From Octopus sinensis (taxonomy: Eukaryota): DNA of 26,781 bases. Below the pieces are notes generated by a model, which saw only the letters and a list, made by a program, of their open reading frames with translations, ran no database searches and was not told where the DNA came from. Within the stretch, counting starts at the first letter, position 1. Each line of letters starts with the position of its first letter. The stretch covers positions 1-26,781 of the forward strand of contig NW_021836346.1 of NCBI RefSeq assembly GCF_006345805.1, given 5' to 3'. Made by a program: the position numbers and the translations under genes. Positions 2,164 to 26,180 of this stretch are shown here, one piece after another.

Positions 2164-2280
2164 ATCAAAATAAGCAACAATGATATCCAGAGGTAATGCA
2201 GTACGATCGTTTCATTAAATGGAGTTGCATGAAACGATCGTACTGCATTATCTCTGGATATCCTTGTTACTTATTTTGAT
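2164..2280. repeat. Fold-back cassette: 52-bp inverted arms, 13-nt spacer, hammerhead 3' half
   Basis: 2164-2215 and 2229-2280 are reverse complements with 3 mismatches. The right arm contains GAAACGATCGTA. Abuts (TA)n at 2281. Confidence 0.85.
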
Positions 2281-2285
2281 ATATA

Positions 2286-2346
<61 letters not shown>

Positions 2347-2430
2347 ATTCGAGACAAAACCACTATTTTAAAACCAAACAAGGAAAGACTTAATCAATAC
2401 ATAAAATTTTAATATAAATTAAATAAACCG

Positions 2431-2473
2431 CCACTACAAATTTTCATGTCTGCTACCGACAATCTTCAGGTGG
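2431..2473 (-). ncRNA. Mirror copy of the hammerhead-like motif on the opposite strand
   Basis: Reverse complement reads CCAC-CTGAAGA-T-TGTC(GGTAGCA)GACA-T-GAAA-ATTTGTA-GTGG. Confidence 0.6.
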
Positions 2474-2536
2474 ATTTTCGATCTTCTAATCAGTATCAAA
2501 TTTTCAAAATTTGATACTGATTAGAAGATCGAAAAT

Positions 2537-2578
2537 CCACCTGAAGATGTCGGTAGCAGACATGAAAATTTGTAGTGG
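2537..2578 (+). ncRNA. Minimal type I hammerhead ribozyme-like motif
   Basis: CCAC-CTGAAGA-TGTC(GGTAGCA)GACA-T-GAAA-ATTT-GTA-GTGG: stem I CCAC/GTGG, CUGANGA and GAAA boxes, GUA triplet. Stem III is weak. Confidence 0.6.
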
Positions 2579-2750
2579 CGGTTTATTTAATTTATATTAA
2601 AATTTTATGTATTGATTAAGTCTTTCCTTGTTTGGTTTTAAAATAGTGGTTTTGTCTCGAATTATATTATATAATATTTTAATATAAAATTGGATTTAAC
2701 CCTAAATCTGATTTTTCCCTGTAATTTTGGATTCATTCCCTAATATTTAT

Positions 2751-2803
<53 letters not shown>

Positions 2804-3096
2804 CATACACACGCATCTATATTATATGTTATATAGAGTGTATATGTGAACTACCAATGCTTTGATGTGAAGAGAGATCTCTCAACAATAATCAAGCCAG
2901 CCACATGAGAACATTTGTACATGTCTTCATTTTGGAGACGAGAAACAACGTTACCATATGACAGGCTCCATAATTGTTATGAGATTCCTCTTGACATGAA
3001 ACCATAGGTAGGCTTGCTAACTAGCAAATAAAGAAAATATATCCATCAATGGGATGTTGAGCGCTTATTCCCACTGTTCGATATTAGCGTATTATC

Positions 3097-3545
3097 TAGA
3101 GAAGCGAGTTTTGTCTTGTGAATGTTTTTAAAAAAATGGGTGAATGTAACAAGGATGGCACGTATGAATGACGAAGCCACCTTGACTATGATCCTACGAA
3201 CCGTAAAAATTAATACAGAGAGTTGCTTATTTGTAAAAAAATATATGTGACTTCATTGACCGAGGTTACCGTGGTCTTTTCCGTAGGCTTTTCTTTCCAC
3301 GGGTAAACCTCACCTGTCCTCCCCTTTACACTTTATATTGACATTTCTGTGATAACGATCCCTATTGATCGATTTTTTCTTTTTCCTTTTATTTTTATCC
3401 CCCTTCTTTTTTTTACATTCCTCTTTCTTTCCTTTTACAATCCTTTTTGATCGAAAACGAAAACCCCTTTCTTTATCCCCCAAAAGAAAAGCTCTACCTT
3501 GTAATTTGTCCCGTCTGTGTGCAGCCCTGTGTGGCTAATAAAGAA

Positions 3546-3546
<1 letters not shown>
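3097..3546 (+). mobile_element. L1/Tx1-type LINE 3' end, diverged copy A
   Basis: Aligns to about 8616-9177 (GGATGGCACGTATGAATGACGAAGCCACCTTGA ... GTGCAGCCCTGTGTGGCTAATAAAGAAA), then (CTAT)n. Confidence 0.85.
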
Positions 3547-3585
<39 letters not shown>

Positions 3586-3607
3586 GTCTATCTATCTATC
3601 TATCTAT

Positions 3608-4260
3608 AACGGGAAGGAAGAGCTATTTTCATCATCCTTGTGGCTATGGCGAAAGAATGTATCTGGTGGACGCGTCTGAAAGGATTGGAGACAAACACTT
3701 TCCTCTCTGGTCAATCTCTCATCAACTTCTTCAAGTACCACTTGAAAAGGAAAGTGAGAGTAGAGAGGCAAGTTTTGTCTAGCGAATGTTTTTAAAAAAG
3801 ATGGGTGAATGTAGCAAGGATGGCACGTATGAATGACGAAGCCACCTTGAGCATAATCCTATGAACCCAGAAATTGAAAACAGAGGGTTACCCACTTGCA
3901 AACAAATGTGGTAACATATAACAATATTGACCAAGGTTACCGTGGTCTTTTTCGTAGGCTTTTCTTCCCACGGATAAACCTTATCTGCTTCCCCCTTTAC
4001 AGCATACATCATGACACTGTGATACACGATCCTTATTGATGGTTTTTTTCCTCTTCCCCTTTTTCCTCTTTTTTCTTCTTTTTTCTTTTTTCTTTTCTTT
4101 TGTTTCTTTACCTTTTTTCTTTTTTTCTTTTTTCCCTTTTACGATCCCTTTTGATCGAAAACTTACGCCACTTTACTTTTTTTTCATCCCCCAAAAGAAA
4201 AGCTCTACCTTGTAATTTGTCCCATCTGTGTGCAGCCCTGTGTGGCCAATAAAGAAACTT
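3608..4260 (+). mobile_element. L1/Tx1-type LINE 3' end, copy B
   Basis: Near-identical to 8462-9177 over the coding part. ORF2 stop at ATAATCCTATGA. Flanked on both sides by (CTAT)n. Confidence 0.9.
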
Positions 4261-4278
4261 ATCTATCTATCTGTCCGC

Positions 4279-4310
<32 letters not shown>

Positions 4311-4520
4311 CTATCAGTCTGTCTGTCTATCTATCAGTCTATCTAACTAACTAACTAACTACCTACCTACCTACCTACCTACCTACCTACCTACCTACCT
4401 ACCTACCTACCTATCTATCTATCTATCTATCTATATCTATCTATCTATCTATCTATCTCTATATCTATCTCTCCCTCTCCCCCCCCCTCTCTCTCTATCT
4501 ATCTATCTATCTATCGATCT
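4261..4520. repeat. Compound (CTAT)/(CTGT)/(CTAA)/(CTAC) microsatellite
   Basis: Direct reading. Confidence 0.95.
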
Positions 4521-5112
4521 ATTTTTGTCTATGTGTTTTGTGTGTATGTCTATATATGTACATGTAAAAATTTTATTAGCTGGTGCCATTGAATCATTTG
4601 ATTAACTCGCCATCTGCCTGCCAATGTGGTCCGCACCAGCGACATAGACGTGCAACCGATCGACACTCTTACTGGTTGGCGATTTTCAATTCAAAACACT
4701 TTATTTCACCGAATATTGATCACCTCGGAATGATCGTATTTGAATATACCAATGGAAATCGAGTTCAATAGATTCGAAGATTAGGCATCGTATTTGGCGA
4801 AAATAGGTAAGAACTGGAATTCCAAAATGAGTTAATTTAATGGCTGCGGTAATAATTGGTGGGTCATTCGTGGAGAGCCGTTTGAGAAGTTGACTGCGAT
4901 TAGTGTTTCAATTTGATGGATGGATGTAATATTATTTGATTCGTATTGTATAACAGAACGGAATGGCCGGCTACATTTATGTTTATTAAACCTCACTAGC
5001 ATCCATGTACGTATTATTTCGCTTTACGTATACATATACATATGTTCACATATACATACACATATAAGAATGTCTCATTCTATACGTGCGTGTATGTGGG
5101 TAGAGCAAGTCG

Positions 5113-5190
5113 CATATATATATATACACACACACACACATATATATATACATATACACACACACACACCACTATATATATTATATGTGC

Positions 5191-5238
<48 letters not shown>

Positions 5239-5239
5239 A

Positions 5240-5277
<38 letters not shown>

Positions 5278-5296
5278 GTGTATATAAATACATATA

Positions 5297-5329
<33 letters not shown>

Positions 5330-5606
5330 ATATATATATATATATATACATATATATATACATATATATATATATGTATATGTATATGTATGTGTATATA
5401 TATATATGTATAGGTATATATATATACATACATACATACATATATATATAATATAAGCAATATATATATATATATTATATACAATACGTATACATTATGT
5501 AAATACGTAAATGTGTATATGTGTGAGAAAATATGTGTACTTATACATATATATGCATATATTTATCCATGTATATATATATATGTATTCATATATATTA
5601 TATATA

Positions 5607-5648
<42 letters not shown>

Positions 5649-5705
5649 TATATATTATATAATATATATATATATATGTACAACATATATACATAATATA
5701 TGCAT
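5113..5705. repeat. (TA)n/(CA)n-rich microsatellite tract
   Basis: Direct reading; explains the YI-repeat ORFs. Confidence 0.95.
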
Positions 5706-5863
5706 ATAGGTATAAAGATAGGTATTTGTATTCGCTGCCGGTCATTATGTTTAGGAAATATATTGAGTTGCATTGACTAATTTCAGTTTCCTCGTGATTC
5801 TATTGTTTGCATTTTGTTTTTCTCAATAGTATTAGGAGAATGAACTTTTGTGCTTCTTTTCTT

Positions 5864-5913
<50 letters not shown>
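5864..5913. repeat. (TAG)n microsatellite
   Basis: Direct reading. Confidence 0.97.
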
Positions 5914-5914
<1 letters not shown>

Positions 5915-5919
5915 CTTAT

Positions 5920-6575
5920 TGTGGTTAACCTACAAGCTCAGTCCTGGCCGCGCAAATAAAGACGTTATGATCGTGACATTCTCGTTGCTTGATTTTCAGT
6001 CGTAGTGTACCTCGGACCAAATTATCCAATGTGACCCTATTTTCTTTTTGAAGTCAACAGTGTCTGATTTGAGGGACATTTTGCCACCCTTTTTAGTACG
6101 CACCGTAGAGATATTCACTAACACGCACAGGTTCCTTCGTGGTCTCAGCCCCGCATGAAATAAAATATAGCCATTACTGTTTAACTCAAAGCAAATCCCA
6201 TATCTGCGTTTTTGATCAAAGGCGTTCCAATGGTGATTAATCAGTCCAATTTTTTGACGCTGTGCATCTAAGAAACTTTACTGTATGTGCTTTTCCTTTC
6301 TTTAAGGCGTTTGTATATGATGTCAATGAAATTTGGTTGCTGTTTCTAGCCCATCCAACGACCAAATAAAGGTTCTCTTATTGGCACGGGTAAACCAGAT
6401 CGTTGTTGTCAATGTTAATGTTTAACCACAGGTGAAACCTGACCGTGTAAACCTATGATCAAAGGCATTCCATCCATGAACATCCCAACTTAGCAGATTG
6501 TTTCTGAGACAATAGTGTGTGATTTTGCTGCTGTTTCTAGTACACCTTGTGACCATGAAGAGTCTCATTGGAGTT
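5920..6575 (-). mobile_element. Three head-to-tail, highly diverged copies of an old SINE-like repeat (family C)
   Basis: Recurring motifs TTAAC..., TGATCAAAGGC(G/A)TTCCA (about 6213 and 6456; TGATCGTGACATTC about 5968) and TTTGG(T)TGCTGTTTCTAG (about 6332 and 6523). The orientation is inferred. An opposite-orientation fragment GCTAGAAATTGCAGC lies at about 476-490. Confidence 0.5.
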
Positions 6576-6995
6576 TTGATAAATACAAATAGTCACCAAA
6601 ATTCACATCCGATAAATCTTTAGTCTACACAACTTGCATGGACGAAAAGGTTGTGATTTATTTGAAGATTACTCATTAAGCTTTAATCAAATTATCCACC
6701 CAACTATCGATCGATCATTCATATTATCTAACGAGCTGTTTTTCTATCTACCTAACGTTCAATCAATCTACGTACGTATTCATTTATCGATCTATGTATT
6801 TATTGATCAATCTATCCAATTTTCCATCTGTGTATCCTTTAATCTTCCAAGCTACTCATCAATTGATATGTGTGTGTTTGTGAGGTGTATGTGTGTGTGT
6901 GTGTTTGTGTATGTATTTGTATTTGCATGTATGTATATATGTGTGTATATATATATATATGTGTGTGTGTGTGTGCGTGTTTGTATGTATGTATA

Positions 6996-7841
6996 CAAGG
7001 TCTGATCAATAAATATCCGGGCTGTTGCTTTAGTAATGAAGCTTAAGCACGCAGAGCAAAGTCGCTTGGCAAAAATTGACCTTGAACTCTGCTGTGCATG
7101 TACACTAAATTTTAACGTTCTTACTCACTTCCGCTGTTTACAGAAGTGCTTGGAAGGAAGGTGTGTAGCGTGTGATCGTCACATGGATAATGACAGAGAA
7201 AGTTGTCATGGCGATGCCTACTCAGGGGCCTACGCAAAGCTGCAAAAAGTGTATGGAGAGGAGTGTGTGGGCTACACATAAGTATACGAATGGTTCAGAC
7301 GTTTCCAAGATGGCCGAAAAGTGTCAATAGTAACGATCGTTCTTGGAGACCCGCAACCAGAAGAACTGAGGAAAACATCACAGATGTGTGTGCAACTGTG
7401 GGGGGAAATCTTCAAATCACAATCAGATGATGGCAGATTAGTTACGGTTCAGTTCAGTCTATTATCACTGAAGATTTGGGTATGAGAAGCGTGTCCGTTA
7501 AGTTTGTGTCAAAACTACTTTCAGCTGGCCAAAAGGATCTCGGGTTTCAGTTGCACAAGATCTCTTTGATTGTGTCGGGAGCGATGAACACTTTTCGAAA
7601 ACTTTGCGTAGAGCTTTGAGCAGGTATCACCAAGATTTTGGCAAAATTTGATCTAGCTTCTCTGCTCAACTTTCTGCCATGGTCAATGTGACGATCACAC
7701 ACTACACACCTTCTTTCGAAGCACTGCTGTAAACAGCATGCATAGCAGAGTACAAGGTCAATTTGTGCAAAGCGGGTTTACTCTGTATCCTTTAACTTCA
7801 TTGCTATGGCAACACTCCGGATACTTATTGATCAGACCACG
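6996..7841 (+). mobile_element. Mariner-derived non-autonomous element with long inverted arms and transposase N-terminal remnant
   Basis: TA-CAAGGTCTGATCAATAAATATCCGG ... CCGGATACTTATTGATCAGACCACG-TA (TIRs plus TA TSD). Frameshifted HTH-region peptides YAKLQKVYGEEC, VYEWFRRFQDGRKSV, RPATRRTEENI, GSVQSIITEDLGMRSVSVKFV. No catalytic domain. Confidence 0.9.
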
Positions 7842-7850
7842 TATGTATAA

Positions 7851-7943
<93 letters not shown>

Positions 7944-7952
7944 GTCTATCTG

Positions 7953-8025
<73 letters not shown>

Positions 8026-8028
8026 TTT

Positions 8029-8111
<83 letters not shown>
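7851..8111. repeat. (CTAT)n [(GATA)n] array, about 260 bp
   Basis: Direct reading. Confidence 0.97.
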
Positions 8112-9177
8112 GTACGACGACGAGCTCGGGGCGAACCTGGACGTCGACGAGGAGTACCTGACCCGCCTGTTCAGGACGACTTTCGGGCCAGGGCCCATGG
8201 ACAACTTCCAGAGATCCCTGGCCTGGCAGTGCTACCGAGAAGCGCTACCCGTTCGGGATAAGCTCTACAGACACGGCTCGAGAAACACGGGGCCGACCTG
8301 CCCGAGATGCGGTCAGGGCGACGAAACCGTTCTGCACGCACTCGTGCAGTGTCCAACAATTTCCGACCTGTAGGCTTATGTCGAACAACTGCTGTCACGT
8401 GTGGGACGAGTCGGTTTATCAGCTGAGTCTATCGTCAATATTGTCACGCCTCCTTCCTTCAAACGGGAAGGAAGAGCTATTTTCATCATCCTTGTGGCTA
8501 TGGCGAAAGAATGTATCTGGTGGACGCGTCTGAAAGGATTGGAGACAAACACTTTCCTCTCTGGTCAATCTCTCATCAACTTCTTCAAGTACCACTTGAA
8601 AAGGAAAGTGAGAGTAGAGAGGCAAGTTTTGTCTAGCGAATGTTTTAAAAAAAGATGGGTGAATGTAGCAAGGATGGCACGTATGAATGACGAAGCCACC
8701 TTGAGCATAATCCTATTGAACCCAGAAATTGAAAACAGAGGGTTACCCACTTGCAAACAAATGTGGTAACATATAACAATATTGACCAAGGTTACCGTGG
8801 TCTTTTTCGTAGGCTTTTCTTCCCACGGATAAACCTTACTTGCTTTCCCCTTTACACCATATATCATAACACTGTGATACACGATCCCTATTGATCGTTC
8901 TTTTTCCTCTTCCCCTTTTTTTCCCCATTTTTTCTTCTTTTTTCATTTCTCTTTCCTTTCGTTCCTTTTCCTTTTCTTTTTTTCTTTTTATTCTTTTATT
9001 TTATTCAATTTTTTTTTGTTTTTGTTCTTTTCTCCCTTTACGACCTCTTGATCTCGAAACCTACGCCACCCCCTTTTTTTTCTTTTGTTTTTTGTTCTCT
9101 TCATCCCCCAAAAGAAAAGCTCTACCTTGTAACTTGTCCCATCTGTGTGCAGCCCTGTGTGGCCAATAAAGAAACTT
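8112..9177 (+). mobile_element. 5'-truncated L1/Tx1-type LINE, copy C (ORF2 C-terminus plus 3' UTR)
   Basis: GC-rich coding segment, T-rich 3' UTR, ends AATAAAGAAACT then TATC repeats. Confidence 0.9.
8113..8720 (+). pseudogene. LINE ORF2 C-terminal fragment with CCHC zinc knuckle (zf-RVT-like)
   Basis: AWQCYREALPVRDKL..CPRCGQGDETVLHALVQC (C-x2-C-x8-H-x4-C) and AKECIWWTR, typical of L1/Tx1 ORF2. In-frame TAG at 8371-8373. One extra T near 8716 shifts the natural stop seen in copy B. Confidence 0.85.
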
Positions 9178-9360
9178 ATCTATCTCTCTCTCTCTATATA
9201 TATATATACTATATACATACACACATACATACATACATACATAAATACATACATACATACATACATACATACATACATACATACATACATACATAAAGAT
9301 ATGGAAAGAAAGACAGATTGGTATCTCTCAATCAATCTTTCTGACTGTCTGTATATATTT

Positions 9361-10277: not shown

Positions 10278-11090
10278 TAAATAAAATGAGACAACAAAGC
10301 CAAGGCAGTGTGGAACTTTCAGGACATTTATAAAGAGAAAGTTAGTCTTATAGCTGTTTCTGGTGTATTAGGGATATTCCTTCATCCGAGACGATGTGAG
10401 ATGGTTGAATAAAGGGAACTAGAAGGAGTTATTTAGAAAAAGAGTGGAAATAAAAAGTATAAAGGGAAATAAGAGAATAAAAGTAAAAATAAAAATATGT
10501 GTAAGATGCTATAGTTGCAGTTCCATTATCCAAGGAATGTGGTGTGTAGAAGTGGTAGAAATGCTTCTTGTCCATGGCATGTAAATTCCAATAGGAGTTC
10601 ATATCTTATCATTAGAAATGGAAAGTGTGGAGACGTAGATTCCATGTGCTGTTCATTCAAAGTGGTCTTGTGGTATGAATGAAATTTTGAGAATGTAGTG
10701 GTAGTGTTAAGTAGATAAAGAGGAGAGAAAAAATGTGTATGTTAAAATGAGGAGATGGTCAAAAGGAATAGGTGAGAAAAGAAGAAAGAAACAAAGGGAA
10801 GAGAAAAGGAAAAAGGAAAACAGGATTGTTAGTTTGTGATCAATATATGATGAGGTGATGGGGAAGTAGGGGAGGGATAAGAATGTAAGGAATGAATATG
10901 TATGAGGAGTTGAAAGGCATAAAATTGGAGGGATGAGTACAGAAAAGTTACGGGGGTGGTTACGAAAGTGAGTTGTAAACCTCAAAAAGGAAGAGAAGAA
11001 TAGGATATAATGGTCAAGTTTCTAAAAAAATAGATGGAGGTGTTTATTGTACTTGCTAATGTAATAGTGGGGGCTAAGGAATCAGAGAGA
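10278..11090 (-). mobile_element. Probable Penelope-like 3' UTR / pLTR remnant
   Basis: Pyrimidine-rich minus strand that ends in a degenerate hammerhead and lies downstream of the GIY-YIG remnant. Confidence 0.45.
10345..10392 (-). ncRNA. Degenerate hammerhead-like motif
   Basis: Reverse complement: GTCT-CGGATGA-AGG...CCA-GAAA-CAGCTA-TA-AGAC. Stem I GTCT/AGAC. Core has U4>G. Confidence 0.5.
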
Positions 11091-11371: not shown

Positions 11372-12285
11372 AGACAATTAAAAATAAGATTGGAGAGGTA
11401 AACTATTTAAAAACGTAGATTATGGAATGTCAAATAGGGTTGTTGGAGATTACCTAAGAAGTGTTCGGGATATGTACTGTGTGGTGATTTAGGTTGCATT
11501 TAGAATTGTGGTAAAATCTTAAGGTATGGAAAAAGCGGTGATTGCATGTATCCAAAGCATTATTATATTCATTTAATAGTATCGAACAGTTGTATTTTAA
11601 TATGTGGAATGCCTCTTTTAGCCATAACTTACAGGCTGCGCGGTGACCCTATGGAAGCTCTGAATTTATTATGGACCATGACAAGATGTATAGAATATTT
11701 CTATATTTGAGATGATGTATGTGACCGGCGATGGTCGTGGATTTATTGTGTTTTTCATATCTAAAAAGTTGCGACCTGTTAAGAATTTATAATTGACCCC
11801 TACATATATGGTTGTAGAATTGTGCAACTTGTTGAGGACGGTACATTTGTAAATTAGGTTAGACGTTCTGCAACAGGAATGTAGAGGGCAGATGGTCCCA
11901 GGGCGGCAGTTACATGGTAGGGCATTGTGGGGATTATTCTCAGGAATGGAGAAGGGGTAAGAAATGGGGGTAGATTGGTCTATGTTATTAACATTATTAT
12001 TACTATTTCTATCGTTATTGTTATTTATCCTATCTGTAATAGTGGTGGAAGCTGGGGTGGTAGTATTCTGGTTAGTGTATGTGGGATTGGTTGGGGTTTT
12101 GTTGTGATCTAAAGTAAGGGGTTCGATATTGGAGCTATGAACATGTTGGGGGCTCATATATTCAAAGATGTTACAGTGTAAGTGTTGATAACAAAGAGAA
12201 AGTTGATAGAGAGGATGTCCTTCCATAACACTTATATAGCTTTTACCTGCCACCTTGGGTCTCCTGGATACCAATGCCTCTCATA
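11372..12285 (-). mobile_element. Penelope-like element fragment: Cys-linker plus GIY-YIG endonuclease
   Basis: ORF 11669..12274 has CNCRPGTICPLHSCCRTSNLIYKCTV...IYVG. A downstream frame (about 11510-11685) reads LSWSIINSELP*GHRAACKLWLKEAFHILKYNCSILLNEYNNALDTCNHRFF, matching the PLE GIY-YIG C-terminus pattern W.I...C.LCL.E...LN...C.H. Confidence 0.8.
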
Positions 12286-12387: not shown

Positions 12388-13568
12388 TATTATATATATA
12401 TATATAGACCGATAGATAGATAGATATAGATAGATAGATATACATGTATATGCGCATATATACATTCGTGCACTCACATACACAAACACACACAAACATA
12501 TATATATATGAATGGTTCTCCGTCGTTTTCAACAATGAAGGTTCAGTTGTTCAATCGTTAATGTGAGATAAACTTCTTACCCATTTGACTGTATATCTTC
12601 TTCGTCGTCGTCGTCATGATCATAATCATCATCCTCATCGTCGAAGACGAAGTTATCACCGTAACTGATATTAGTTTCGAGAGTCAAGGGAAGATTATTT
12701 TAATACAACAATTTACATATAAACAATCTTCTCCTAGTCAGGAGGGAAAAGTGATAACTCCGGGCATGTTTCGAGTATATCTGGACGTCGTCAGTGAAGG
12801 ATAGATAAAATATAGAGAACCACGCTGATAACTTTCTTCATCGTCTTCTTACATTAAAAAACCAACGTTTTTTCACAAAGTGACAACACTTCTAATACGC
12901 GGATATCCTCATGTTCTGTGGTATCGATATTTTGTTTCATTTGTCATAGTTATGCGATTTAATCAAAGCAAGGAATTTTACACTCGTTGCCAGAAACAGT
13001 GAGAAATCGGAGACTGTAAAATAAAAGAAAATATAAAAAAACAATAACTAATGCAAAAAGACTCAAGCTTACAGGAAACATTGATAATTTAATTTATCTC
13101 CCATCTTCTTTTTAAATTGATTCGTTTACGTGCATATATATGTAAATATACATGCATAAATACATACATAACATCATACATACATACATACCTACATATA
13201 TATATTATATATATATATTATATATATATTATATATATATATATATATATAGACATATATACACATATACATGCGTATATGTAAATGTATTATTTACATG
13301 TATATAATATACCTGCATGCATACTTACACATATACATACATGTACACGTGTGTGTGCTTTCTTTTCACACTCTTTGATAAATTGTTTTTATAAAACTTG
13401 TTACTGTTTTTCTTCTCCCTTAATACCATAGGCACGTAAACATCAGCATAACGTATGTACATACATATATATATACTACATACATATTTACAAAACACAT
13501 ATGTATGTATGTACATATATATAGATATATAATATATATATAAATATACATATAAATGTATATGCATT

Positions 13569-14442: not shown

Positions 14443-15253
14443 CAGGGTCGGTGAATAAACCATCATCTAAATAACGCATAACGGAAAATAAAGCTGACAT
14501 CTCACTTTAACAGACATATTCAGTAAAATTGAACAAAATCGTCATTGACTTCAACCACGGCCTTCAGACGGATTCGGAAAGTCTTGCAACTCTTCAAGTT
14601 GGTGATTGCTGCCATAATCCATGTTTTCAGTTCATCTTTGGTGCTACAAGGAGATTTGTTGGTCTCTCAACTGCACCGCACCCAAAATAATCAAGGGGTT
14701 GCAGTCTGGGGAGTTAGGTGGCCAGATGTTAGGAAAGATGTCATCCGGAAATTGAAATTCATGACTGGTTTCTCCTGCTTGTGTTGCATGGTGCTGAGTC
14801 CTGTTACCAGACATAGGGTCTTCCAGCAGCCACCCTCTCGACCCAGGGCAGCACTACCTTCTCCAAGCATTTGATGTAGGCCTTCGTGTTAAGTGTGAGG
14901 CCGTGTGGGTAGATGAATGAGGCATAACGTCGCCATCAATAGTGATCACTCCAAACACCATGATGTTGACTGGATGTTTGATTTTTATCACTCTCAGTAC
15001 ATGTTTTAGGGACTCAGATTGAAACCCAACACCCTGAAAAGTTCGTACTGGAGCTTCCAGCGTGAATGCCAAGCAGCACAGCATGTCGTTTCCCAATTTT
15101 TGGCAGAATGAATTGCGTCATGGTGCTCTTTTTCTCATAGACAGTGCCCAATTGACTCTACTATACTGTAAAAATGACGAAATCAAATACAAACAATACG
15201 CACGCGCAAAATTAACAGAATATTAAATGGCGGCAATTTAACCATCGCACCTG
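14443..15253 (-). mobile_element. Internally deleted Tc1/mariner element (maT/DD37D-like)
   Basis: TA-CAGGGTCGGTGAATAAA ... TTTAACCATCGCACCTG-TA imperfect TIRs. Minus-strand peptides KHPVNIMVFGVIT, YIKCLEKVVLPWVERVAAGRPYVW*QDSAPC and WPPNSPDCNPLDY; the last acidic residue is D, as in maT. Confidence 0.85.
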
Positions 15254-15334: not shown

Positions 15335-15455
15335 ATATATATTATATATTTATATATCAAACGTGAGGATAAAATTCTTTTCGAAAAAAAAAATTTTCTC
15401 GAAAAAATCTTTATCAATGGCCAGCATATTAAAAAATACCTTTAACGGTTAAATT

Positions 15456-15789
15456 TATAAGCAATTCATAAATGAGGGCAAAGGAAAAAGTTTCTAATAC
15501 CAAATATGCCGAAAAATTGGACATATTGTCCATTAACCATATAATGTTTTCACAATACGCATGCTACTCGAAAAAAGGCTGACAGAAATTTCTTTAAAAT
15601 TCCATTATTACCATATCAGACCGATTTCAGAGTTAGCTACTAAGAGCCCTCTCTTCGTCAGTGATACATGTGGCAAAAGAAATAAATGAGATACTTACTA
15701 CTATACCATGGAAGTATCTCATTGGACAATATGTCCAATTTTTCGGTATATTTGGCATTATAAACTTTTCCTTTGCCCTCATTTATGAA

Positions 15790-15797
<8 letters not shown>
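15456..15797. repeat. Fold-back cassette: about 75-bp inverted arms around a 190-bp spacer containing a hammerhead
   Basis: AATTCATAAATGAGGGCAAAGGAAAAAGTTT...AAAAATTGGACATATTGTCCA versus TGGACAATATGTCCAATTTTT...AAACTTTTCCTTTGCCCTCATTTATGAATT. The unit 15358-15797 lies between (TA)n tracts. Confidence 0.85.
15613..15667 (-). ncRNA. Minimal type I hammerhead ribozyme (intact core)
   Basis: Reverse complement: GTATCA-CTGACGA-AGAG(18 nt)CTCT-GAAA-TCG-GTC-TGATAT. 6-bp stem I, 4-bp stem II, all core nucleotides, GUC cleavage triplet, vestigial stem III. Confidence 0.78.
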
Positions 15798-15843
<46 letters not shown>

Positions 15844-16764: not shown

Positions 16765-16791
16765 TATATATATATATATAGACATACTCAT

Positions 16792-17008
16792 GGTGCGGCA
16801 GAAAGGTTACTCGATTTCAAAGGTTAAAAAACAAACACATGAAGATACAAGAAAAACGATGCTCTCCATTCCAGACGATGGTGGGTACGACCTGAAACAA
16901 AAAGAAATAGCATTTAAAGAACTTCAGAGAAATACTAAGTGTTTTCATGCATATTCATGTGTTTGTCATTTATTAACCTTTGAAATCGGGACACCTTTCT
17001 GCTGCATC
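16792..17008. repeat. Diverged fold-back cassette with degenerate hammerhead in the spacer
   Basis: TGCGGCAGAAAGGTTACTCGATTTCAAAGGTTAA...ACAAACACATGAA versus TTCATGTGTTTGT...TTAACCTTTGAAATCGGGACACCTTTCTGCTGCA. The spacer has CAGACGA-T-GGT(GGGTACG)ACC-T-GAAAC (16872-16898). (TA)n on both sides. Confidence 0.75.
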
Positions 17009-17030
17009 CTGATATATATATATATATATA

Positions 17031-17091: not shown

Positions 17092-18030
17092 ATCTTGATG
17101 TTGACGTCTAGAAGGAAAGTTCGTTATACCTGGTTTCCGTCGTAAAGTTGATAGAAGGGTACAGTGTGTTAAGGATGTTGTGGAATATTCGTAGATCTGT
17201 TCCAAAAGATGAAACAATCATCGAGGTAGAATTTCCTCTTTTTCTTGATGTTTTCTCTGAAGTCGTGTTCGAAGATTTTCCCTATTTCCTCGTCTAGTTT
17301 GTCCTCAAGGAAACCCATAACCAGGTTGGCATAAGAAGGTGCGAATTTCGTACCCATAGCCGTGCCATTTATCGGTCAGTATGTCTTGTTGTTAAATGTG
17401 AGTGTGTTTTCTTCAAGTATTAATTGGGTGGCTTTGGTGATAAATCTGTTTTGAAGCATTTATCTATGAATTCCTTGTAGTTTTCTACCCATTGTTTTAT
17501 CGCCTTCAGACCCAGGATGTGTAGTATGTTCGTCTATACGATTGTGACATCGAAGCTTGCAAGTATGGTGTTTTCCGGAACCGTATTTGGAATGTGTGTG
17601 AGAAAGTCTGTCATCCTTTATACAGCTTGCTATCAGTGGGCATAAAGGTTTGAGGAGTACATCTATGTAGTGGCTTAGTTGTTGTGTTGGTGCCCGTGAG
17701 GTCTGTGGGTCTTTGTATTCTTATATAATGGCTCCTCTGTTCTTTTATGGCTCTCTGTATTTCAGAGCTTTTATGAACTTTAGGTAGTCCATAAAATTGC
17801 CTTCTTTGGTTCTTGAGTTGCATAAATAGTTTTTCTCCTTGTCTGTAAAGGAGTCCTGGTATTCATTGACTAATGTTCCGATTTTTTAATGTAGCTTTCT
17901 CCGGTTGTGTTGATTCCTCTTCATAGTGTGTCTGGTTGTTAAGTATCTTTAGTATCTTTTCTTTGTAGCTATCTGTATCCATAATTACTATCGCTCCACC
18001 TTTGTCAGCTTCTTTTAAGACGATCGACTT
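17092..18030 (-). pseudogene. Penelope-like element reverse transcriptase remnant (frameshifted)
   Basis: Collinear PLE RT motifs on the minus strand: KEADKGGAIVIMD, FYGLPKVHK, DFLTHIP..ILASFDVT, GTAMGTKFAPSYANLVMGFLE, FYLDDCFIFW, INFTTE. Confidence 0.9.
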
Positions 18031-18082
18031 AAATAAGTAAAAATAAAAGACAAACATATTACCATCTAATGATATACCGACA

Positions 18083-18911: not shown

Positions 18912-19589
18912 TTCCTATTTTCTTTCTATTATTTTTACTTCTCTCTCTGTATATACTACAAACACACCTTTACATGGAGAGTACATAATAAATATTTCTT
19001 ACTTAGTCACTCTTAGTCTATCTCCCCATCTTCTCTCTCTTTGTTTCACGCCATCTAAAAAACCTGCAAATTCAATAGTTTTCGTTTTTAATAGTATTCA
19101 GTTATTTTCGTTTTCTTTCATTTCACCAATTTTATATTCGTTTCCTTCCTTCCTATGTAGCTTACAATGTACAACAGCCAGCCTCTACACACACACACAC
19201 ACGCACGCACGCACGAACGCACACACACACGTACATATATATATATATGTATATATATATGTATATATATATATGTATATATATATATGTATATATATAT
19301 ATGTATATATATATATGTATATATATATCTACATGCATATATAGAGACATGTATCTGCGTGCTTTCACATGTATATGCGCACACACGCACTCATGTACAC
19401 AAGCACACATATATGCACGCATGCACTTAGGCAAGATTGCACGCGATAACTGAGACTCAGTATGGAACAACTAAGAATATCACGGAAAGGGGAAATGCCG
19501 TCATCACTATATATTCCGCCTACTCTTGAAGAGCATGCACTTAATAGCTTACAAAGATTTTGGGTGTTTTAAACAACCTGTCAATAAGT

Positions 19590-19728
19590 GACGGGTAGAT
19601 TATTTAATCGAATTCAGAAGGATTAAAAACAAAATTTACCTCAACAAAAAAAGAATGTAAAGAGCCGGAACAAATAACGGACACCATTTATTCCGATGTT
19701 CTGACGATTCTGCCTGCTTTGAGACCGT
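19590..19728 (-). mobile_element. SINE family B, very old copy
   Basis: CTGACGATTCTGCC is the reverse complement of the head GGCAGAATCGTTAG; TTATTTAATCGA..GAAGGATTAAA resembles the central domain. Confidence 0.45.
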
Positions 19729-19740
19729 AGAATAATCCAT

Positions 19741-19881
19741 TGACTGTCAAATCTGTGGTATTGAGTAGAATATTTGCTGTAGCCTATCTTTTATACCTAG
19801 ACAAACCAATGTACATGATAACACTTCCAATCAGTTAAGATCAGAAACCATGAGAACCACTACCTGGTACAGCGTCAGGGC

Positions 19882-19883
<2 letters not shown>
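19741..19883 (-). mobile_element. Fragment of a non-coding (TAA)n-associated interspersed repeat (family D), one terminus
   Basis: TCAAATCTGTGGTATTGAGTAGAATATTTGCTGTAGCCTATCTTTT is shared with about 22001-22045. Abuts (TTA)n at 19883. Strand is inferred. Confidence 0.65.
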
Positions 19884-19947
<64 letters not shown>

Positions 19948-20043
19948 AATGATGATGATAGTAATGGTGGTAACAATTACGATGATAAGGCTTATAACAA
20001 TCATGGTGAAGCTACTGGTGATGATGATGACGACAACCACCAC

Positions 20044-20076
<33 letters not shown>

Positions 20077-20185
20077 CATTACGACAGCAATGGTTGTCAC
20101 GATGTTAAGCAGCATCATGGCAACGATAGTGATGTTAGTTAGAATGGCGGTGATGGAGAAGTTGATGGCACAGTTGGTGATATGA
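19883..20185. repeat. (TTA)n grading into degenerate (GAT)n
   Basis: Direct reading; explains the poly-I/poly-M ORFs. Confidence 0.93.
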
Positions 20186-20803
20186 TCCTCTTCGTGATAA
20201 GATGTATTTATTATTTTTTATTATTTCTTCATTTGTCTTCTCTTTCTTTTCTTTTTTTTTCTTTTTTCTTGCAAATTATGCTGTGAGCTAAACATTTATA
20301 AAAGCAAAACTTTTTCGAAAAGAACCGAGACTGTGTTTCGCTATTACTGACGTCTGTTTGTTTACCTCCCAAAGATAGTAATAATAATGTTCAAACAGGC
20401 AGCATTCATTATCTTAACTTTGATCATGTTCGGTGGGGGTGGGCATGAAAACATTACCGTTTCGCACAAAATAAAGAACTACTAACTAAAAAAGCAAAAA
20501 AATTGGGAGTATGAACGCAGATTCACGCACTTTTTTTTCGGTAAATACACTTCTTGTTGCAGATAAACAAATTGATTACATAAAGATTTTGGAGTGTGTA
20601 CACATCGACAGCATTCACATAAACGAATAAAAGATGAAGAGACAGTGATAATGTGTGTATATATATAGGCATGTATACATGCATGTCAGTCTTCATATAT
20701 ACCCGTGTGTAGATATGTGCCTATGTATACGTGTATGTATATATGTATAAACATCTATCTATCTGTCTATCTATCTATATATATATATATATATATATAG
20801 ATG

Positions 20804-20885
<82 letters not shown>

Positions 20886-21486
20886 ATACTTATATGTACA
20901 CACACACATATATATACGCACATAGTTGCCTTAAAGTACGTATACATACTTGTACGCATCTACGTATTTCTACACACATATATGTGTATATTATTGTATG
21001 TATGTATGTATATATAATCTATATCTATACACATATATACATACATATGTATATATGTATCTTATATATATATATATATTATATATATATATATATATAT
21101 AATAATAATATATATATATTATATATACATATACATGCACATGTAAATGTATATGTCTGTTGATATGCATACAGAAAAGCACATGCTCAGACCTTCCCAT
21201 AATTTACGAGTAAGATGACGAACATACACATTGTTACACACATGCGCACTCACAGCAAGATGACAACGGAAGAAACAAACATTCAGCAATGTCAGGCGTC
21301 TGTAGGCAGGTTTCCAAATTCTTACTACGCATTTATTTGCCTAGAAATGGCTGATCAGTGCAGTGATATGCGACCAAATGGTTGAGTGAATCAGAAACAT
21401 TCACAAAAGTTGGGATAATACATGGTTTACTTCTGTTTTTATGGAAAACTAAAGGCATTTGAGCGGCAGGAGTTATTTCCTTTCAA

Positions 21487-21505
21487 TTATTATTATTATT
21501 ATTAT

Positions 21506-21587
<82 letters not shown>
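21487..21587. repeat. (TTA)n-(CTA)n-(TTA)n microsatellite
   Basis: Direct reading. Confidence 0.96.
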
Positions 21588-22045
21588 GAGTGAGAGAGCA
21601 GTGCATGCCATCAAAGTAACACTGGGGTAAAATATACGAAGCCCAATATACCCATCATGACTACCCGTCTGATAAGGGTACATCAGGCACATGCATCACA
21701 ACCATATGTGCGCGACATGGTGATCTCATATCAAGATAAACAGCACATGACCTGCAGGTGGGGACCAGTTAGAATTTTCTTCAGGTTGAGTAGCCCATCC
21801 CGCTCAAAAGGTCCCTGAATAAGGGTTGTTAAGGATGTTGAAAGAACCACCCATGTTTCCAGAGGTGAATTATTCAAACCCAAGAATCCCTCTCAACACA
21901 TGGTATGATGCTCCCCCACTACTTCTGCTCGTGATCAGAGATGCAATATCGTCAGCCACTAAGGGACATGCTCAACTGGTTAAGGTCAAACAACTGACAA
22001 TCAAATCTGTGTATTGAGCAGAATATTTGCTGTAGCCATCTTTTT
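21588..22045 (-). mobile_element. Non-coding (TAA)n-embedded interspersed repeat (family D), main body
   Basis: Complex, moderately GC-rich sequence sharply bounded by TTA arrays on both sides, with a second overlapping copy at 19741-19883. No recognisable protein. Strand is inferred. Confidence 0.65.
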
Positions 22046-22067
22046 TTTTTTATTATTATTATTATTA

Positions 22068-22101
<34 letters not shown>

Positions 22102-22166
22102 CATATAAGTCACCTCCACCACCTCCAGCACCACCACACCACCACCATCACCGCCACCACCACCAC

Positions 22167-22238
<72 letters not shown>

Positions 22239-22451
22239 GGCGGCGAACTGACAGAATCGTTAACACGCCGGACGAAATGTTTGGCGGTAATTCGTCTGCC
22301 GTTACGTTCTGAGTTCAAATTCCGCCGAGGTCGACTTTGCCCTTCATCCATTCGGAATCGATGAAATAAGTACCAGTTGAACACTGGTGTCGATGTAATC
22401 GACTAGTTCCCCCTCCCCCAAATTTCAGGCCTGTTGCCTTTTGTAGAAAGG

Positions 22452-22452
<1 letters not shown>
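22239..22452 (+). mobile_element. tRNA-derived SINE family B, full-length copy with (ATT)n tail
   Basis: Head GGCGGCGAACTGACAGAATCGTT, B box GAGTTCAAATTCC, central GGTCGACTTTGCCCTTCATCCATTCGGAATCGATGAAATAAGTACCAG (recalls the Meta/MESC-type SINE domain; not verified). Confidence 0.88.
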
Positions 22453-22520
<68 letters not shown>

Positions 22521-22538
22521 GTTATTATTATTATTATT

Positions 22539-23783
22539 CAGTAGTTTTATTTTTATAGCGTGCTTTCACTTCACTACCGAGCGCAGCTCTGTGTGCCTTG
22601 GGTATGTGCTGTGATTTGTTGTGATGCTCTGATGGTTATTGTATGGAAAGTGTTCTACGTAGGATGTGTGCAGTGCCTAGTAGTGCAATTTTCTGTATGT
22701 TATATGTGTTTGTAAGTCCTGGTGTTTTTGTTATGTATTTGTCTGAATATTTTTTTATCATGCCTAATGCACCTACTATGATAGGAATTGTTTCTGTTTT
22801 CAGATTCCACATTCTAGTTACCTCTATTTCCAGGTCTTTGTATTTTGAGAGTTTCTCCATTTCTTTTAGAGACACGTTGTCATCGGCCGGTATTGATACA
22901 TCAATTAGAAAGCATTTTTTTCTTCATGATCTCTGACAACTATATCTGGTCTGTTGGCCTTAATTTCTCTCTGTGTGTATCGGCATATCCCAGAGTATGT
23001 TTGCTTTCTCGTTTTCTGTGACCTTTTCTGGTGTGTGCCTATACCATCTTTTTTCTGTTGTTATTCCATAATGTTGGCATAGCTTCCAATGTATGTAGGT
23101 TCCAATTCTGTCATGTCTGTGAATATATTCCTTCTTAGCCAGGACTGGGCAGCTAGAGATAATATGATTTATTGTTTCTTGTCCATCTCCACATATTCTG
23201 CAGTTACTTGTAATATTTCTTTTCATTACATGTTTTTGGTAATTTCTGGTGGGGAGGCTTTGGTCTTGCGCTGCAATTAAAAATCCCTCTGTTTCTGCTT
23301 TGAGTCCTGAGCTTCTCAACTATTGCTGGGATTTTTCTTTGTTTATTTCTTTTGCGTTTAGTTTAGTGCAGTATTTACCATGAAGGGGCTTTTCTTGCCA
23401 TCGTTTTATCATGGTTCGTTGCTGTTCTATTTTTAGTTTGATTTCATTTGTTTTATAGCTTTGTTGTTTCTTCATCATCTTCTTCTTCTTCTTCGTGTTT
23501 ATTAGGTGGTATGATTTCTTGTTTGTATTTGTCAGCTTCCTTAAATACTCAGAACAGTTTTTTGTTTTGCTCGTGTTTTGCTGCTATCTGGATCAGTTTT
23601 CCTTCCTTCTGAAGTAGATATTTTTGCAGTCCTATGGTGGTTATTTTATAGTAGTTTTCCAGCTGTATAAGGCCTCTACCACCTTCTATACGTTGTATAT
23701 ATAGTCTTTCTATGTCAGATTTTGGGTGATGCATCCTAGATCCTGTCAGTATTTTTCTTGTTTTCCTATCTATTTTGGACAGT

Positions 23784-23785
<2 letters not shown>
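22539..23785 (-). mobile_element. 5'-truncated R4/Dong-clade non-LTR retrotransposon (RLE type) inserted in (TAA)n
   Basis: Both junctions are (TAA)n on the element strand; about 100-bp 3' UTR after the stop at 22636. Confidence 0.9.
22636..23785 (-). pseudogene. R4/Dong ORF C-terminus: end of RT, CCHC knuckle, PD-(D/E)xK restriction-like endonuclease
   Basis: HHPKSDIERLYIQRIEGGRGL; ETEGFLIAAQDQSL; CRICGDGQETINHIISSC; RHD; ILWD; (frameshifted) KANRPDIVV..CFLIDVSIP..EKLSKYKDL; PIIVGALG. Several stops and frameshifts. Confidence 0.92.
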
Positions 23786-23843
<58 letters not shown>

Positions 23844-23866
23844 TATTATTATTATTATTATTATTA

Positions 23867-23905
<39 letters not shown>

Positions 23906-23909
23906 CATC

Positions 23910-23941
<32 letters not shown>

Positions 23942-23952
23942 CATTACTATTA

Positions 23953-24014
<62 letters not shown>
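23786..24014. repeat. (TTA)n/(CAT)n microsatellite
   Basis: Direct reading. Confidence 0.96.
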
Positions 24015-24016
<2 letters not shown>

Positions 24017-24017
<1 letters not shown>

Positions 24018-24196
24018 CGGCGATCTGGCAGAACTGTTAGCACATCAAACAAAATGCTTCACGGCATTTCATCCGTCTTGACATTCTAAGTTAAAATTCT
24101 GTCCAGGTCCGTCTTGCATTTCATCCTCCTGGGGTCGATGAAACAAGTACCGGTTGCACACTAACCCCTACCCAAAATTTTCAGGCCCTCCCTAGT
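24017..24196 (+). mobile_element. SINE family B, diverged copy
   Basis: GCGGCGATCTGGCAGAACTGTTAGCAC...TTTCATCCTCCTGGGGTCGATGAAACAAGTACCGGTT...AAATTTTCAGGCC matches 22239-22452. Confidence 0.85.
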
Positions 24197-24197
24197 G

Positions 24198-24373
24198 TCT
24201 TCTCTTCTTCTTCTTCTGTCTTCTCTTTTTTCTTCTTCTTCTTCTTCTTCTTCTTTTTCTTTTCTTCTTCTGGCTTTCTTCTTTTCTTCTTCTTTTCTTC
24301 TTCGTCTTCTTTTTCTCTCTTCTTCTTCTTCTTCTTCTTCTTCTTCTTCTTCTTCTTCTCCTTAGTCTTCTTC
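24198..24373. repeat. (CTT)n-rich polypyrimidine tract
   Basis: Direct reading; explains the K/E-rich end of ORF 24181..24669. Confidence 0.93.
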
Positions 24374-25094
24374 ACCCTTAGTCGGTACCTAACACCGCTA
24401 ACCCTATATATATATATATTATATATATATATATATATAGATATATATATATATATATATGTATATATAAAGAGAGAAAGAGAAACGATAAGAAATGGAG
24501 CAATAATTGAGAATGAAAAGTTGATCATTGGTGTCCCCATTACCACTATTAGTACCAAATACAGAAACTTACGGACACGTGGAAACATAAAAGTCACTAA
24601 ATCTAGGACTATGGATTTAATGAACCTCTCTTTTATTCTCCTACTGACACGTTGAGTTATGTATGTCACTAAAATGTAAGACTATTGCTTTCACGAACAC
24701 TTTTCTTTTTTTTCTTCTATTTTTTCCTTCTATTTTTCCTTCTATTTTATCTTTGTCATATAATCGTTCTGAAGATATTTATCAATTGTAACGAGGTAAA
24801 TGCAAATTTGCCCCATTTTCATAATTAGAAACAGCTGTAAAAATACTCTTAATTTAATTAAAGAATGACTTTAAAACACCAATGATCCGCTTCTCATTGT
24901 TAATTGCTGCTCCATTTCTCATCGTCTCTATATATATTAAACCACGGTTTTACCTTTAAATTACCTATTACCGTATACCTTATAACGAGAACCATACATA
25001 CTGAGGTAATACACCAAGAGTCCCTCGGATACATCTATTCCTTAGATGGTTGCATAATCTCTAACTTATATCTTATATGTACATATATATAATA

Positions 25095-25134
<40 letters not shown>

Positions 25135-25237
25135 CATACATATATATATGTATATAAATATATATATATGTATATATATATAATATATATATAGATGTAT
25201 GTATGTATATGTTATATATATGTACATATATGTATAT

Positions 25238-25280
<43 letters not shown>

Positions 25281-25282
25281 TT

Positions 25283-25442
25283 GCAACGAGCTTCTTTCAG
25301 TTTCCGCCTACAGATCCACTAACAAGATTTTGGTGGCCCGAGGCTATAGTAGAAGATACTTGCCGAAGGTGCTACGAAGTGGCATTGAACCCGGAACCAT
25401 TTGGTTGGTAAGCAAGCTTCTCGTTACACAGCCACTCCTGTG
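25283..25442 (-). mobile_element. SINE family A, 5' half
   Basis: Reverse complement of 18083-18245 (CTTCTTTCAGTTTCCG...ATAGTAGAAGATACTTGCC...TGAACCCGGAA...AAGCTTCT..TACACAGCCA). Confidence 0.88.
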
Positions 25443-26082
25443 GGTATGTTTGTTTTATTTTCAGTTATAAAAACAAGTTTACATTAATCTGGTGGATTAC
25501 TCTATACTTTTGTAGAGGACAAATTTATTATTCTTATGCAAAAATGGAATCTCTCTGGTTTTCCTCAAACAAATTTTCTTATGTATCATTTGTACTTTTT
25601 GACACAGAATCCGAATTTGTTTTTCATTTATTCCAGAAAAATTTTGCTAGAATGTTAGAGGTATTCAAAGTTTGATAATTTTCAGAATTTTCAGCCAATC
25701 AGAAAACAGCACGTTCGCTTCCTCTTCCATCATCAGGGGAGAGGGGATCATCGGCATGTCAAAGCATTAAACTAGTATTTTATAAAACAAATTATTTTTC
25801 TCGTATCTCATTCTCCTCCTTGTACGCATGTGCAGTATCTTTGTTTACAATGGAAACAGTTCTTCGCAATCAGCTATGCAACACGTGGTGCTTCTTTGCT
25901 TTGGTTACTATGGAAATAGAAATTTTTTCGCTACGGTGATATGTAAAATACCCAAATTTTGCAAATTTTACAGGCTAACTTGTTAATTATCGATTTATAG
26001 GAAAATTAATATTAATCCATATTCCAAATTTTAAAACAATTTGAACAAAATTGTAAACTGTGACGAAAACCACCACGATCCC

Positions 26083-26180
26083 AAGAATGTTGATTAGTGA
26101 CTTCGAAGTTTTCACCGGTTTAGCCATTGTCCGACGATGGCTTAGCTGGCCGAAACTTCAAAGTCACTATCAACATTCTT
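26083..26180. repeat. Diverged palindrome centred in a hammerhead core
   Basis: AAGAATGTTGATTAGTGACTTCGAAGTTT...AGCCATTGTC versus GACGATGGCT...GAAACTTCAAAGTCACTATCAACATTCTT. The plus strand reads CCGACGA-T-GGC(TTAGCTG)GCC-GAAA-CTTCAAA-GTC. Confidence 0.75.

Follow-up and report, generated by a model that had tools for sequence, protein, structure and literature searches.

Head-to-head hammerhead-bearing cassettes in an Octopus sinensis contig as probable short products of Penelope-like elements, one with a putative spliced leader

Here we report that four of five inverted-repeat cassettes in a 26,781-nucleotide (nt) stretch of the Octopus sinensis genome (contig NW_021836346.1, positions 1 to 26,781; hereafter the window) are back-to-back short pieces of hammerhead-bearing repeat families, likely left by Penelope-like elements (PLEs). 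In our reading, to which we assign a probability of about 0.8, PLE enzymes built the paired arms of cassettes 1, 2, 3, and 5 afresh, head to head, in every insertion event, and the sequence of cassette 2 derives from the 5' end of its parent's spliced, capped messenger RNA (mRNA). The original prediction for this DNA, made from its letters, had described five inverted repeats without obvious mutual similarity. A self-comparison of the window with simple repeats masked found all five at the places described; they share no sequence and represent five separate families, which we call A (cassette 2), B (cassette 1), C (cassette 3), D (cassette 4), and E (cassette 5). The limits had been drawn too narrowly for the first three cassettes, in each of which one tailed arm extends further, to 2080 on the left of cassette 1, to 2753 on the right of cassette 2, and to 15353 on the left of cassette 3; the tail of cassette 5 is displaced, at 25453-25546.

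Cassettes 1, 2, 3, and 5 follow a common plan, with two arms placed head to head, one tailed and the other stopping at an inner point. Insertions of endonuclease-bearing PLEs have been described with this layout, namely an inverted, 5'-truncated copy beside a direct copy, a tail at one end, (TA)n targets, and palindromes at the junction (Craig et al. 2021, PMC8557442; Arkhipova et al. 2013, PMC3846280); in the passages of these papers on insertion structure the tails are 30-40 nt long, whereas those found here measure ~75-115 nt. The same four cassettes lie in or near (TA)n, although in cassette 5 the TA units are few and confined to one end, and for them the proposal that PLEs of several families inserted short inverted pieces into (TA)n is borne out; it fails for cassette 4, which is likely a miniature inverted-repeat transposable element (MITE). 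Its basis is a linked open reading frame (ORF) with reverse transcriptase (RT) and GIY-YIG endonuclease for the family of cassette 2, and the layout for cassettes 1, 3, and 5. Both this layout and the hammerheads were already known. Our full-text literature searches, which lay outside most subscription papers (the early PLE intron papers included) and supplements, returned no report of abundant intron-less copies of a PLE leader, and the passages of PMC13282606 at hand mention neither Hydra nor hairpins.

Cassette 2 as a putative spliced leader of a Hydra-type element

Cassette 2 combines a tailless arm of spliced form on the minus strand (2331-2507), whose hammerhead core is at 2469-2463 and whose outer end merges with (TA)n at 2279-2346, with a tailed arm on the plus strand (2503-2753). 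The tailed arm, a 98% match to a spliced copy elsewhere in the genome (L390), corresponds to positions +3 to ~+256 of the apparent spliced leader of a Hydra-type PLE. Its tail (2679-2753) consists of the ~75 nt between the two end points of the family, ~+180 and ~+256, and is followed by (TA)n. Long copies of the repeat continue into an ORF: at C4:78.08 Mb (L281) the tailed repeat runs directly into an RT ORF with a C-terminal GIY-YIG domain, in a tandem arrangement with a period of 5436 nt. This ORF is frameshifted, and that of L304 is open for 637 amino acids. In L305 the initiator, the intron, the hammerhead, and the ATG are contiguous in one piece. The parent reads, in order, an initiator-like site, a 27-nt exon, a ~1.3-kb GT-AG intron, the hammerhead, the end points at ~+180 and ~+256, and the ORF.

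By its protein motifs the parent of cassette 2 is provisionally assigned to the Hydra clade of PLEs, of which cassette 2 represents a terminal repeat. The encoded proteins have DKT in place of DKG, a CxCX5C linker, and CxxC and CxH near the end; together with the C-terminal GIY-YIG, the hammerhead in the terminal repeat, and the (TA)n targets, these features match the description of the clade in PMC8557442. The N-terminal RWK motif reads RIKWK here, and the element is longer than the <3 kb typical of Hydra, with a period in L281 of more than 5 kb, which may include foreign sequence, and an intron that alone accounts for ~1.3 kb; the section of PMC8557442 on Hydra makes no mention of such a 5' intron. 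Mapping of the arms to PLE termini succeeded for family A, which matches a Hydra-type terminal repeat, and yielded no ORF-bearing parent for families B, C, and E. Pfam gave no hit above its cut-offs for the Hydra-type proteins, nor did it recognise the PLE pieces within the window, and in none of the best 30 of 415 loci found from the ORF side did the repeat adjoin the 5' leader of cassette 2. Between its RT and endonuclease the L281 ORF contains a long run rich in asparagine, similar to inserts known from Penelope of rotifers.

The first 27 nt of the arm form exon 1 (2503-2527 in cassette 2, with the exon-exon junction between 2527 and 2528). In long copies a GT donor follows exon 1, as seen in 31 exact matches, and 25 of the 30 unspliced copies that were fetched have a pyrimidine-rich AG exactly where the arm resumes, after an intron of 879-1314 nt; the other five show no acceptor within 1480 nt. 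The genome contains 277 exact spliced junctions. A pattern fitting both forms matches 365 times, and the first 100 of these matches comprise 68 spliced and 32 unspliced copies. None of 89 spliced arms enters the ORF-side sequence, as against five of 39 unspliced sightings. Four hammerhead variants are common to spliced and unspliced copies, which argues that the intron-less copies arose repeatedly and from several sources.

This distribution bears on the possibility that a single ancestral intron-less retrocopy became a master resembling a short interspersed nuclear element (SINE) and spread by means of PLE enzymes. Such an origin could account for the ~3 to 1 excess of spliced over unspliced copies at the junction (277 of 365) and for the ~99% similarity among the spliced ones. 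We consider it improbable because different intron-keeping copies also carry the four variant types, so that the table of variants favours several sources, and because no spliced copy extends beyond the tail into the region that the anole PLE needs for protein binding.

The 5' limit of family A looks like an RNA start and is likely one; the arms end at an initiator-like TCACTT. Thirty-nine spliced arms, some of them two arms or two records of one insertion, reach the A of this motif (+1). The preceding base is G in 17 of them, C in 18, T in two, and A in two, whereas it is C in all 30 unspliced copies. The 22 arms without G match the upstream parent sequence over at most 7 nt; the 17 arms with G share no sequence further upstream, and TA or the partner arm precedes them. 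An extra G at the 5' end is the expected trace of cap copying, as established for retrocopies. The description of cassette 2 as extremely truncated is therefore not apt, as its 5' end coincides with the likely start of the spliced RNA. Every holder of the cassette that was listed is a contig and none is entered as RNA; contigs of four sequencing runs cover cassette 2 and are uninformative on the start, strand, and level of transcription.

Penelope of Drosophila virilis likewise has an internal initiator, a short first exon, and an intron that ends near the hammerhead, with most transcripts spliced (passages of PMC2377424 and PMC4209133). Its intron measures 75 nt and is described there as retained on transposition, whereas hundreds of genomic copies of family A are intron-less. 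Arkhipova et al. (PMC3846280) proposed an antisense template together with intron retention and suggested self-priming on that template, leaving the question open in the passages concerned. The short copies of family A are mostly intron-less and end at the likely RNA start, and intron-less copies standing head to head argue against an antisense template in this family. PLE copying, the keeping of introns, and the formation of head-to-head insertions are treated as open in the corresponding sections of PMC8557442 and PMC3846280. Near-identical intron-less copies, present by the hundreds and with a hard 5' end, favour capped sense mRNA as the template and would document in the genome the internal priming that has until now been seen only in vitro.

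Paired arms of family A and their possible formation

To describe the pairing we fetched 107 loci of family A and set aside 25, which either repeated an insertion already counted or belonged to two tandem arrays; the remaining 82 comprise 61 pairs and 21 copies that are solo or unpaired within the range fetched. In 59 of the 61 pairs one arm is tailed, ending at ~+256, and the other is tailless, ending at ~+180; each of the remaining two has one arm cut short. The predicted enrichment for (TA)n is clear, as 114 of the 122 arms end in TA within 14 nt, compared with 5.4% of random positions that have a TA tract within 30 nt, a background measured at a different stringency. While the outer ends are fixed, the 59 pairs have 52 different junctions. 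Solo copies of both end types occur (tailless: L003, L008, L014, L347, and L378).

Fixed outer ends and varied centres run counter to the earlier suggestion that the hairpins were amplified as units, which was tested in depth for this family. Copies of a hairpin RNA truncated at the 5' side would vary at the outer end. One junction does recur, in four of the 59 pairs, and its appearance at many loci would suit amplification of a unit; its site is a near-palindrome of 11 nt (+4 to +14), and, being found with either loop variant, it was likely formed more than once. Whole fold-back cassettes in tandem at two loci (C4:145.86 Mb and C905) and the ORF-less tandems of family C would also be in keeping with such a unit, but family C repeats the arm and not the hairpin. 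We therefore regard amplification of the hairpin itself as highly improbable. The tandem cassettes, with TA between them, are found in L002/L045 at the first locus and in L396-L398 at the second; head-to-tail ORF-less units are absent from the family A loci examined. Contigs of short-read run X17 contain many different fold-back joints, some with extra letters, and this variety argues that the layout is not an artefact of long reads.

The two arms of a pair are likely derived from one template. The loop variant is identical between the arms in all 27 typed pairs (a chance of about 4e-8 if the arms were independent), and none of 23 head-to-head pairs (17 spliced and 6 unspliced, counted by eye in the first 100 of the 365 matches) mixes a spliced with an unspliced arm (about 2e-6). 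A precedent for two internal starts is PAc, the Poseidon element of Anolis, which in vitro cleaves AT-rich DNA on both strands, begins reverse transcription at two internal points that bound the tail, requires downstream RNA, and uses uncleaved RNA as its template (PMC11167929). The evidence for family A, by comparison, comes from the genome; its start points are situated upstream of the ATG, and the two are used once each in every pair.

On this precedent we propose that the PLE protein would bind the mRNA and nick both strands of (TA)n, with reverse transcription starting internally at two points, and that the two complementary DNAs (cDNAs) copied from the same RNA would run to the cap or stop early and be joined by microhomology. 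On spliced mRNA the only sites with the ORF downstream would lie ~180 and ~256 nt from the cap and would give short stubs, and priming from both nicks would give one arm of each kind. Long copies that keep the intron would arise from unspliced read-through RNA, through use of its downstream repeat. In the proposed model the leader carries the hammerhead along as a passenger, and the cassette can do without it. A hammerhead-cut template was considered and not adopted: 5' ends of arms cluster at +84, which is 8 nt past the predicted cut at +76 and in an AT-rich run, too inexact a fit to count as evidence of cleavage. We further suggest, tentatively, that a Hydra-type PLE leaves "strong-stop" copies of its capped spliced leader across the genome, with one enzyme dimer priming twice on one RNA at two fixed internal sites. 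This would rule out an antisense template for head-to-head insertions and explain intron retention, in that spliced RNA would give only short dead stubs and full copies would come only from unspliced read-through RNA; family C may then be such a leader closed into a self-sufficient retrozyme.

A possible but more doubtful route keeps the origin from spliced sense RNA and has the second arm made by snap-back, in which a single cDNA folds back at its 3' end to copy its own strand before being cut at the AT-rich inner site, with later deletions producing the uneven centre. Self-priming of this kind has been proposed, there on an antisense template (passages of PMC3846280). The agreement of the arms in variants (27/27) and splice state (23/23) would follow from snap-back as well, and the commonest junction lies on the near-palindrome at +4 to +14. 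The tailed arm reaches at least as far in the 5' direction as the tailless one in 43 of 59 pairs (further in 27, equally far in 16), but in the remaining 16 the tailless arm is the longer, which plain snap-back from the tailed strand makes impossible, and solo tailless copies occur. Of the two routes, we consider double priming on one RNA somewhat likelier than snap-back.

Several observations weigh against de novo pairing from spliced, capped mRNA as we propose it. The excess of pairs with a longer tailed arm (27 against 16) is a lean towards snap-back, and the recurring junction is found in eight of 17 spliced pairs among the first 100 matches, with a common spacing of 44 nt. Variants shared between arms could also stem from gene conversion or assembly polishing, which would hardly explain a shared splice state. 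Inner pairs with two tailed arms are present in the C905 array (L396-L398), which lies outside our count. The 5.4-kb tandem unit of L281 has no match to exon 1. As to the cap, about half of the G bases at -1 can be explained by microhomology with the partner arm, and 18 of the 39 arms carry the genomic C there; the splice, the start site, and the cap are all deduced from genomic copies. Finally, 55 loci of family B, 28 of C, and 28 of E contain no linked RT or GIY-YIG ORF, and the PLE pieces near them look separately inserted. With its fixed start site, splice sites, and two end points, the model lends itself to direct tests. In genome annotation, stubs of this kind resemble MITEs or microRNA hairpins and belong under PLE products.

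Cassettes of the other families, hammerhead motifs, and density

Families B, C, and E show the features of PLE insertions, namely head-to-head arms, a tail on one arm, and a variable centre, and their PLE origin, resting on this layout, is likely. All families were searched in the 2.72-Gb genome with 40 candidates scored per search; the first-look candidates (1275 and 1151 for A, 767 and 2750 for B, 2407 for C, 142 for D, and 716 for E) are not copy counts. In cassette 1 the tailed arm (2080-2215, minus strand) matches a genomic copy of family B at 96%, and its tail part at 2080-2163 is found in other copies, where tails reach up to ~115 nt. The tailless arm (2206-2280, plus strand) ends in (TA)n.

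Cassette 3 has a tailed arm on the minus strand (15353-15714, tail at 15353-15455), which belongs to an ORF-less unit of ~490 nt, and a short tailless arm on the plus strand (15723-15804) that ends in (TA)n. The unit is also found head to tail, with a hammerhead in each copy, four times on C434 and twice each in L101 and L102. The earlier idea of a retrozyme-like element is thus right for the ORF-less tandems of family C and wrong about the repeated unit, which is a single arm. Metazoan retrozymes that lack long terminal repeats (non-LTR retrozymes) are likewise described as ORF-less head-to-tail units with type I hammerheads (sections of PMC7229834 and bioRxiv 10.64898/2026.07.22.740005). Family C fits this definition, with circular RNA as a prediction, although its unit is just above the quoted 150-450 nt and it also inserts with the two-end pattern of family A and in inverted, PLE-type form. 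Its tandem unit has TCACTT 15 nt behind the tail end; as copies do cross this motif, it is only a hint of a link to the leader model.

Cassette 5 consists of a decayed left arm (26082-26135, minus strand) and a right arm (26125-26203, plus strand). The segment at 25453-25546 (minus strand), which continues the left arm in family coordinates, is likely its tail-bearing outer part, pushed away by what is likely a later insertion of ~530 nt. A near-identical copy of cassette 5, flanks included, exists at L137 (C3338), and the window may be an alternative haplotype or a duplicate of that locus.

Cassette 4 (16789-17011) is likely an unrelated, TA-flanked MITE of fixed length; its arms are terminal inverted repeats (TIRs) of ~65 nt. 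Across its family, the left end aligns in 24 of 25 loci, the 19 copies that have both ends measure 209-239 nt, the TIRs start with CAG, and TA flanks the 5' end in 16 of 24 and the 3' end in 16 of 19. Fixed length, long TIRs starting with CAG, and TA on both sides are features that we take to mark Tc1/mariner-type MITEs, and we presume cassette 4 to be one. The original prediction had named matches to TIR families of DNA transposons with fixed target-site duplications as a finding that would speak against it, and cassette 4, with its fixed TIR ends and TA flanks, is such a case. Extending the explanation to all five cassettes, as MITEs or assembly artefacts, finds some footing in cassette 4 and in the proneness of palindromes to mis-assembly. 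We give it almost no credence, since it is contradicted by the variable centres, the solo arms, the linked RT ORF, the exact loss of the intron, and the fold-back joints in short-read contigs; for cassettes 1, 2, 3, and 5 it is refuted by the variable length and the one-sided tails.

The claim that every cassette holds all or part of a hammerhead motif needs amending, as the motif is intact only in cassette 3, partial or altered in cassettes 1, 2, and 5, and lacking in cassette 4. The complete set of type I features (CUGANGA, GAAA, UH, and stems I-III) is present in the window in cassette 3 and, for families A and B, in other genomic copies; it is incomplete in the window copies of cassettes 1, 2, 4, and 5. 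The motif of cassette 3 (15615-15665, minus strand) is the sole one in the window to pass a strict descriptor, with the hit starting at 15661, and 30 shuffles of the window gave one hit. Both arms of cassette 2 have CUGANGA and GAAA, and each is short of one stem III base present in other copies. Its plus-strand motif (2537-2578), with stem I at 2537-2540/2575-2578, core at 2541-2547, GAAA at 2564-2567, and a predicted cut after 2574, is one base short in stem II and another in stem III relative to family A. Cassette 1 carries, on its tailless arm, only the 3' half GAAA-stem III-GUA (GAAA at 2231-2234, predicted cut after 2242), while other copies of family B have the full motif CUGAAGA...GAAAC...GUA with a 5-bp stem I and a long loop II. 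The hammerhead-shaped motif on the right arm of cassette 5 has the core CCGACGA (26131-26137), GAAA at 26152-26155, and a predicted cut after 26165; the C at core position 4 is the common state of family E, found in most copies. CUGANGA occurs on neither strand in the 24 aligned copies of family D.

Minimal type I hammerheads of PLEs, in pairs 100-700 nt apart and on opposite strands, have been noted before (passages of PMC4209133). The motifs found here share with them a short or palindromic stem III and an extra base after the core; family E, whose motif is predicted, differs in core position 4. A search of Rfam returned no hammerhead family among the 150 of 194 matches listed; these concern hairpins or microsatellites and score below the gathering thresholds. 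For A, C, and the window's copy of E, the minimum-energy fold of the single motif is not that of a hammerhead, a result that is uninformative for motifs expected to act as dimers. Families B and E (e.g., L066 and L149) have a pyrimidine run and TGCAG before the core, ending at or within stem I and resembling a splice acceptor; splicing there might alter the ribozyme, by analogy with Penelope of D. virilis.

The window is richer in these cassettes than the genome at large. In 80 evenly spaced 10-kb stretches of the genome (799,800 nt) we found 12 loci of families A, B, C, and E, or about one per 67 kb, so that the predicted one per 5 kb is at least tenfold too high. The same sample contains seven strict hammerheads, compared with 0, 0, 0, 1, and 0 in five shuffles, and 39 short inverted repeats, 15 of them with TA at an end. 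Crossing the two scans placed only one of the seven hammerheads inside an inverted repeat.

Other elements in the window

RT and GIY-YIG remnants of PLEs are present in the window, as had been claimed, and belong to families other than those of the cassettes. Those remnants (RT at 17096-18050, GIY-YIG at 11669-12280) were considered as parents of the cassettes and rejected, as their families carry other ends. The segment 10280-12280 (minus strand) is the 3' part of another Hydra-type PLE, in which the GIY-YIG remnant with its CxCX5C linker occupies 11669-12280 and a hammerhead, now decayed, ~10345-10395; intact versions of the latter motif follow the same gene in L186 and L187. The broken RT at 17096-18050 (minus strand) is from a different PLE family of the DKG type, whose relatives have a C-terminal endonuclease with CxxC.

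Further inverted repeats lie between these elements. Short inverted ends at 12646-12845 enclose a hammerhead-like motif, now decayed, with its core at 12794 on the minus strand; this is probably one more old cassette. A sixth inverted repeat at 24481-24929 has 54-nt arms and a 341-nt spacer and lies between TA tracts; its CUGAAGA at 24769 fails the descriptor. The 240-nt hairpin at 1599-1840, 85% paired and without a hammerhead, is probably a MITE, and a similar end occurs in the random samples L211 and L237. Decayed transposase-like pieces at 6993-7844, which has inverted ends, and at 14443-15250 are presumably of Tc1/mariner type. Three copies of the 3' end of a long interspersed nuclear element (LINE) with a zf-RVT domain, each terminating in (TATC)n, are found within 3097-4275 and 8112-9192, and a broken C-terminus of a non-LTR retrotransposon, also with zf-RVT, occupies 22625-23842 on the minus strand.

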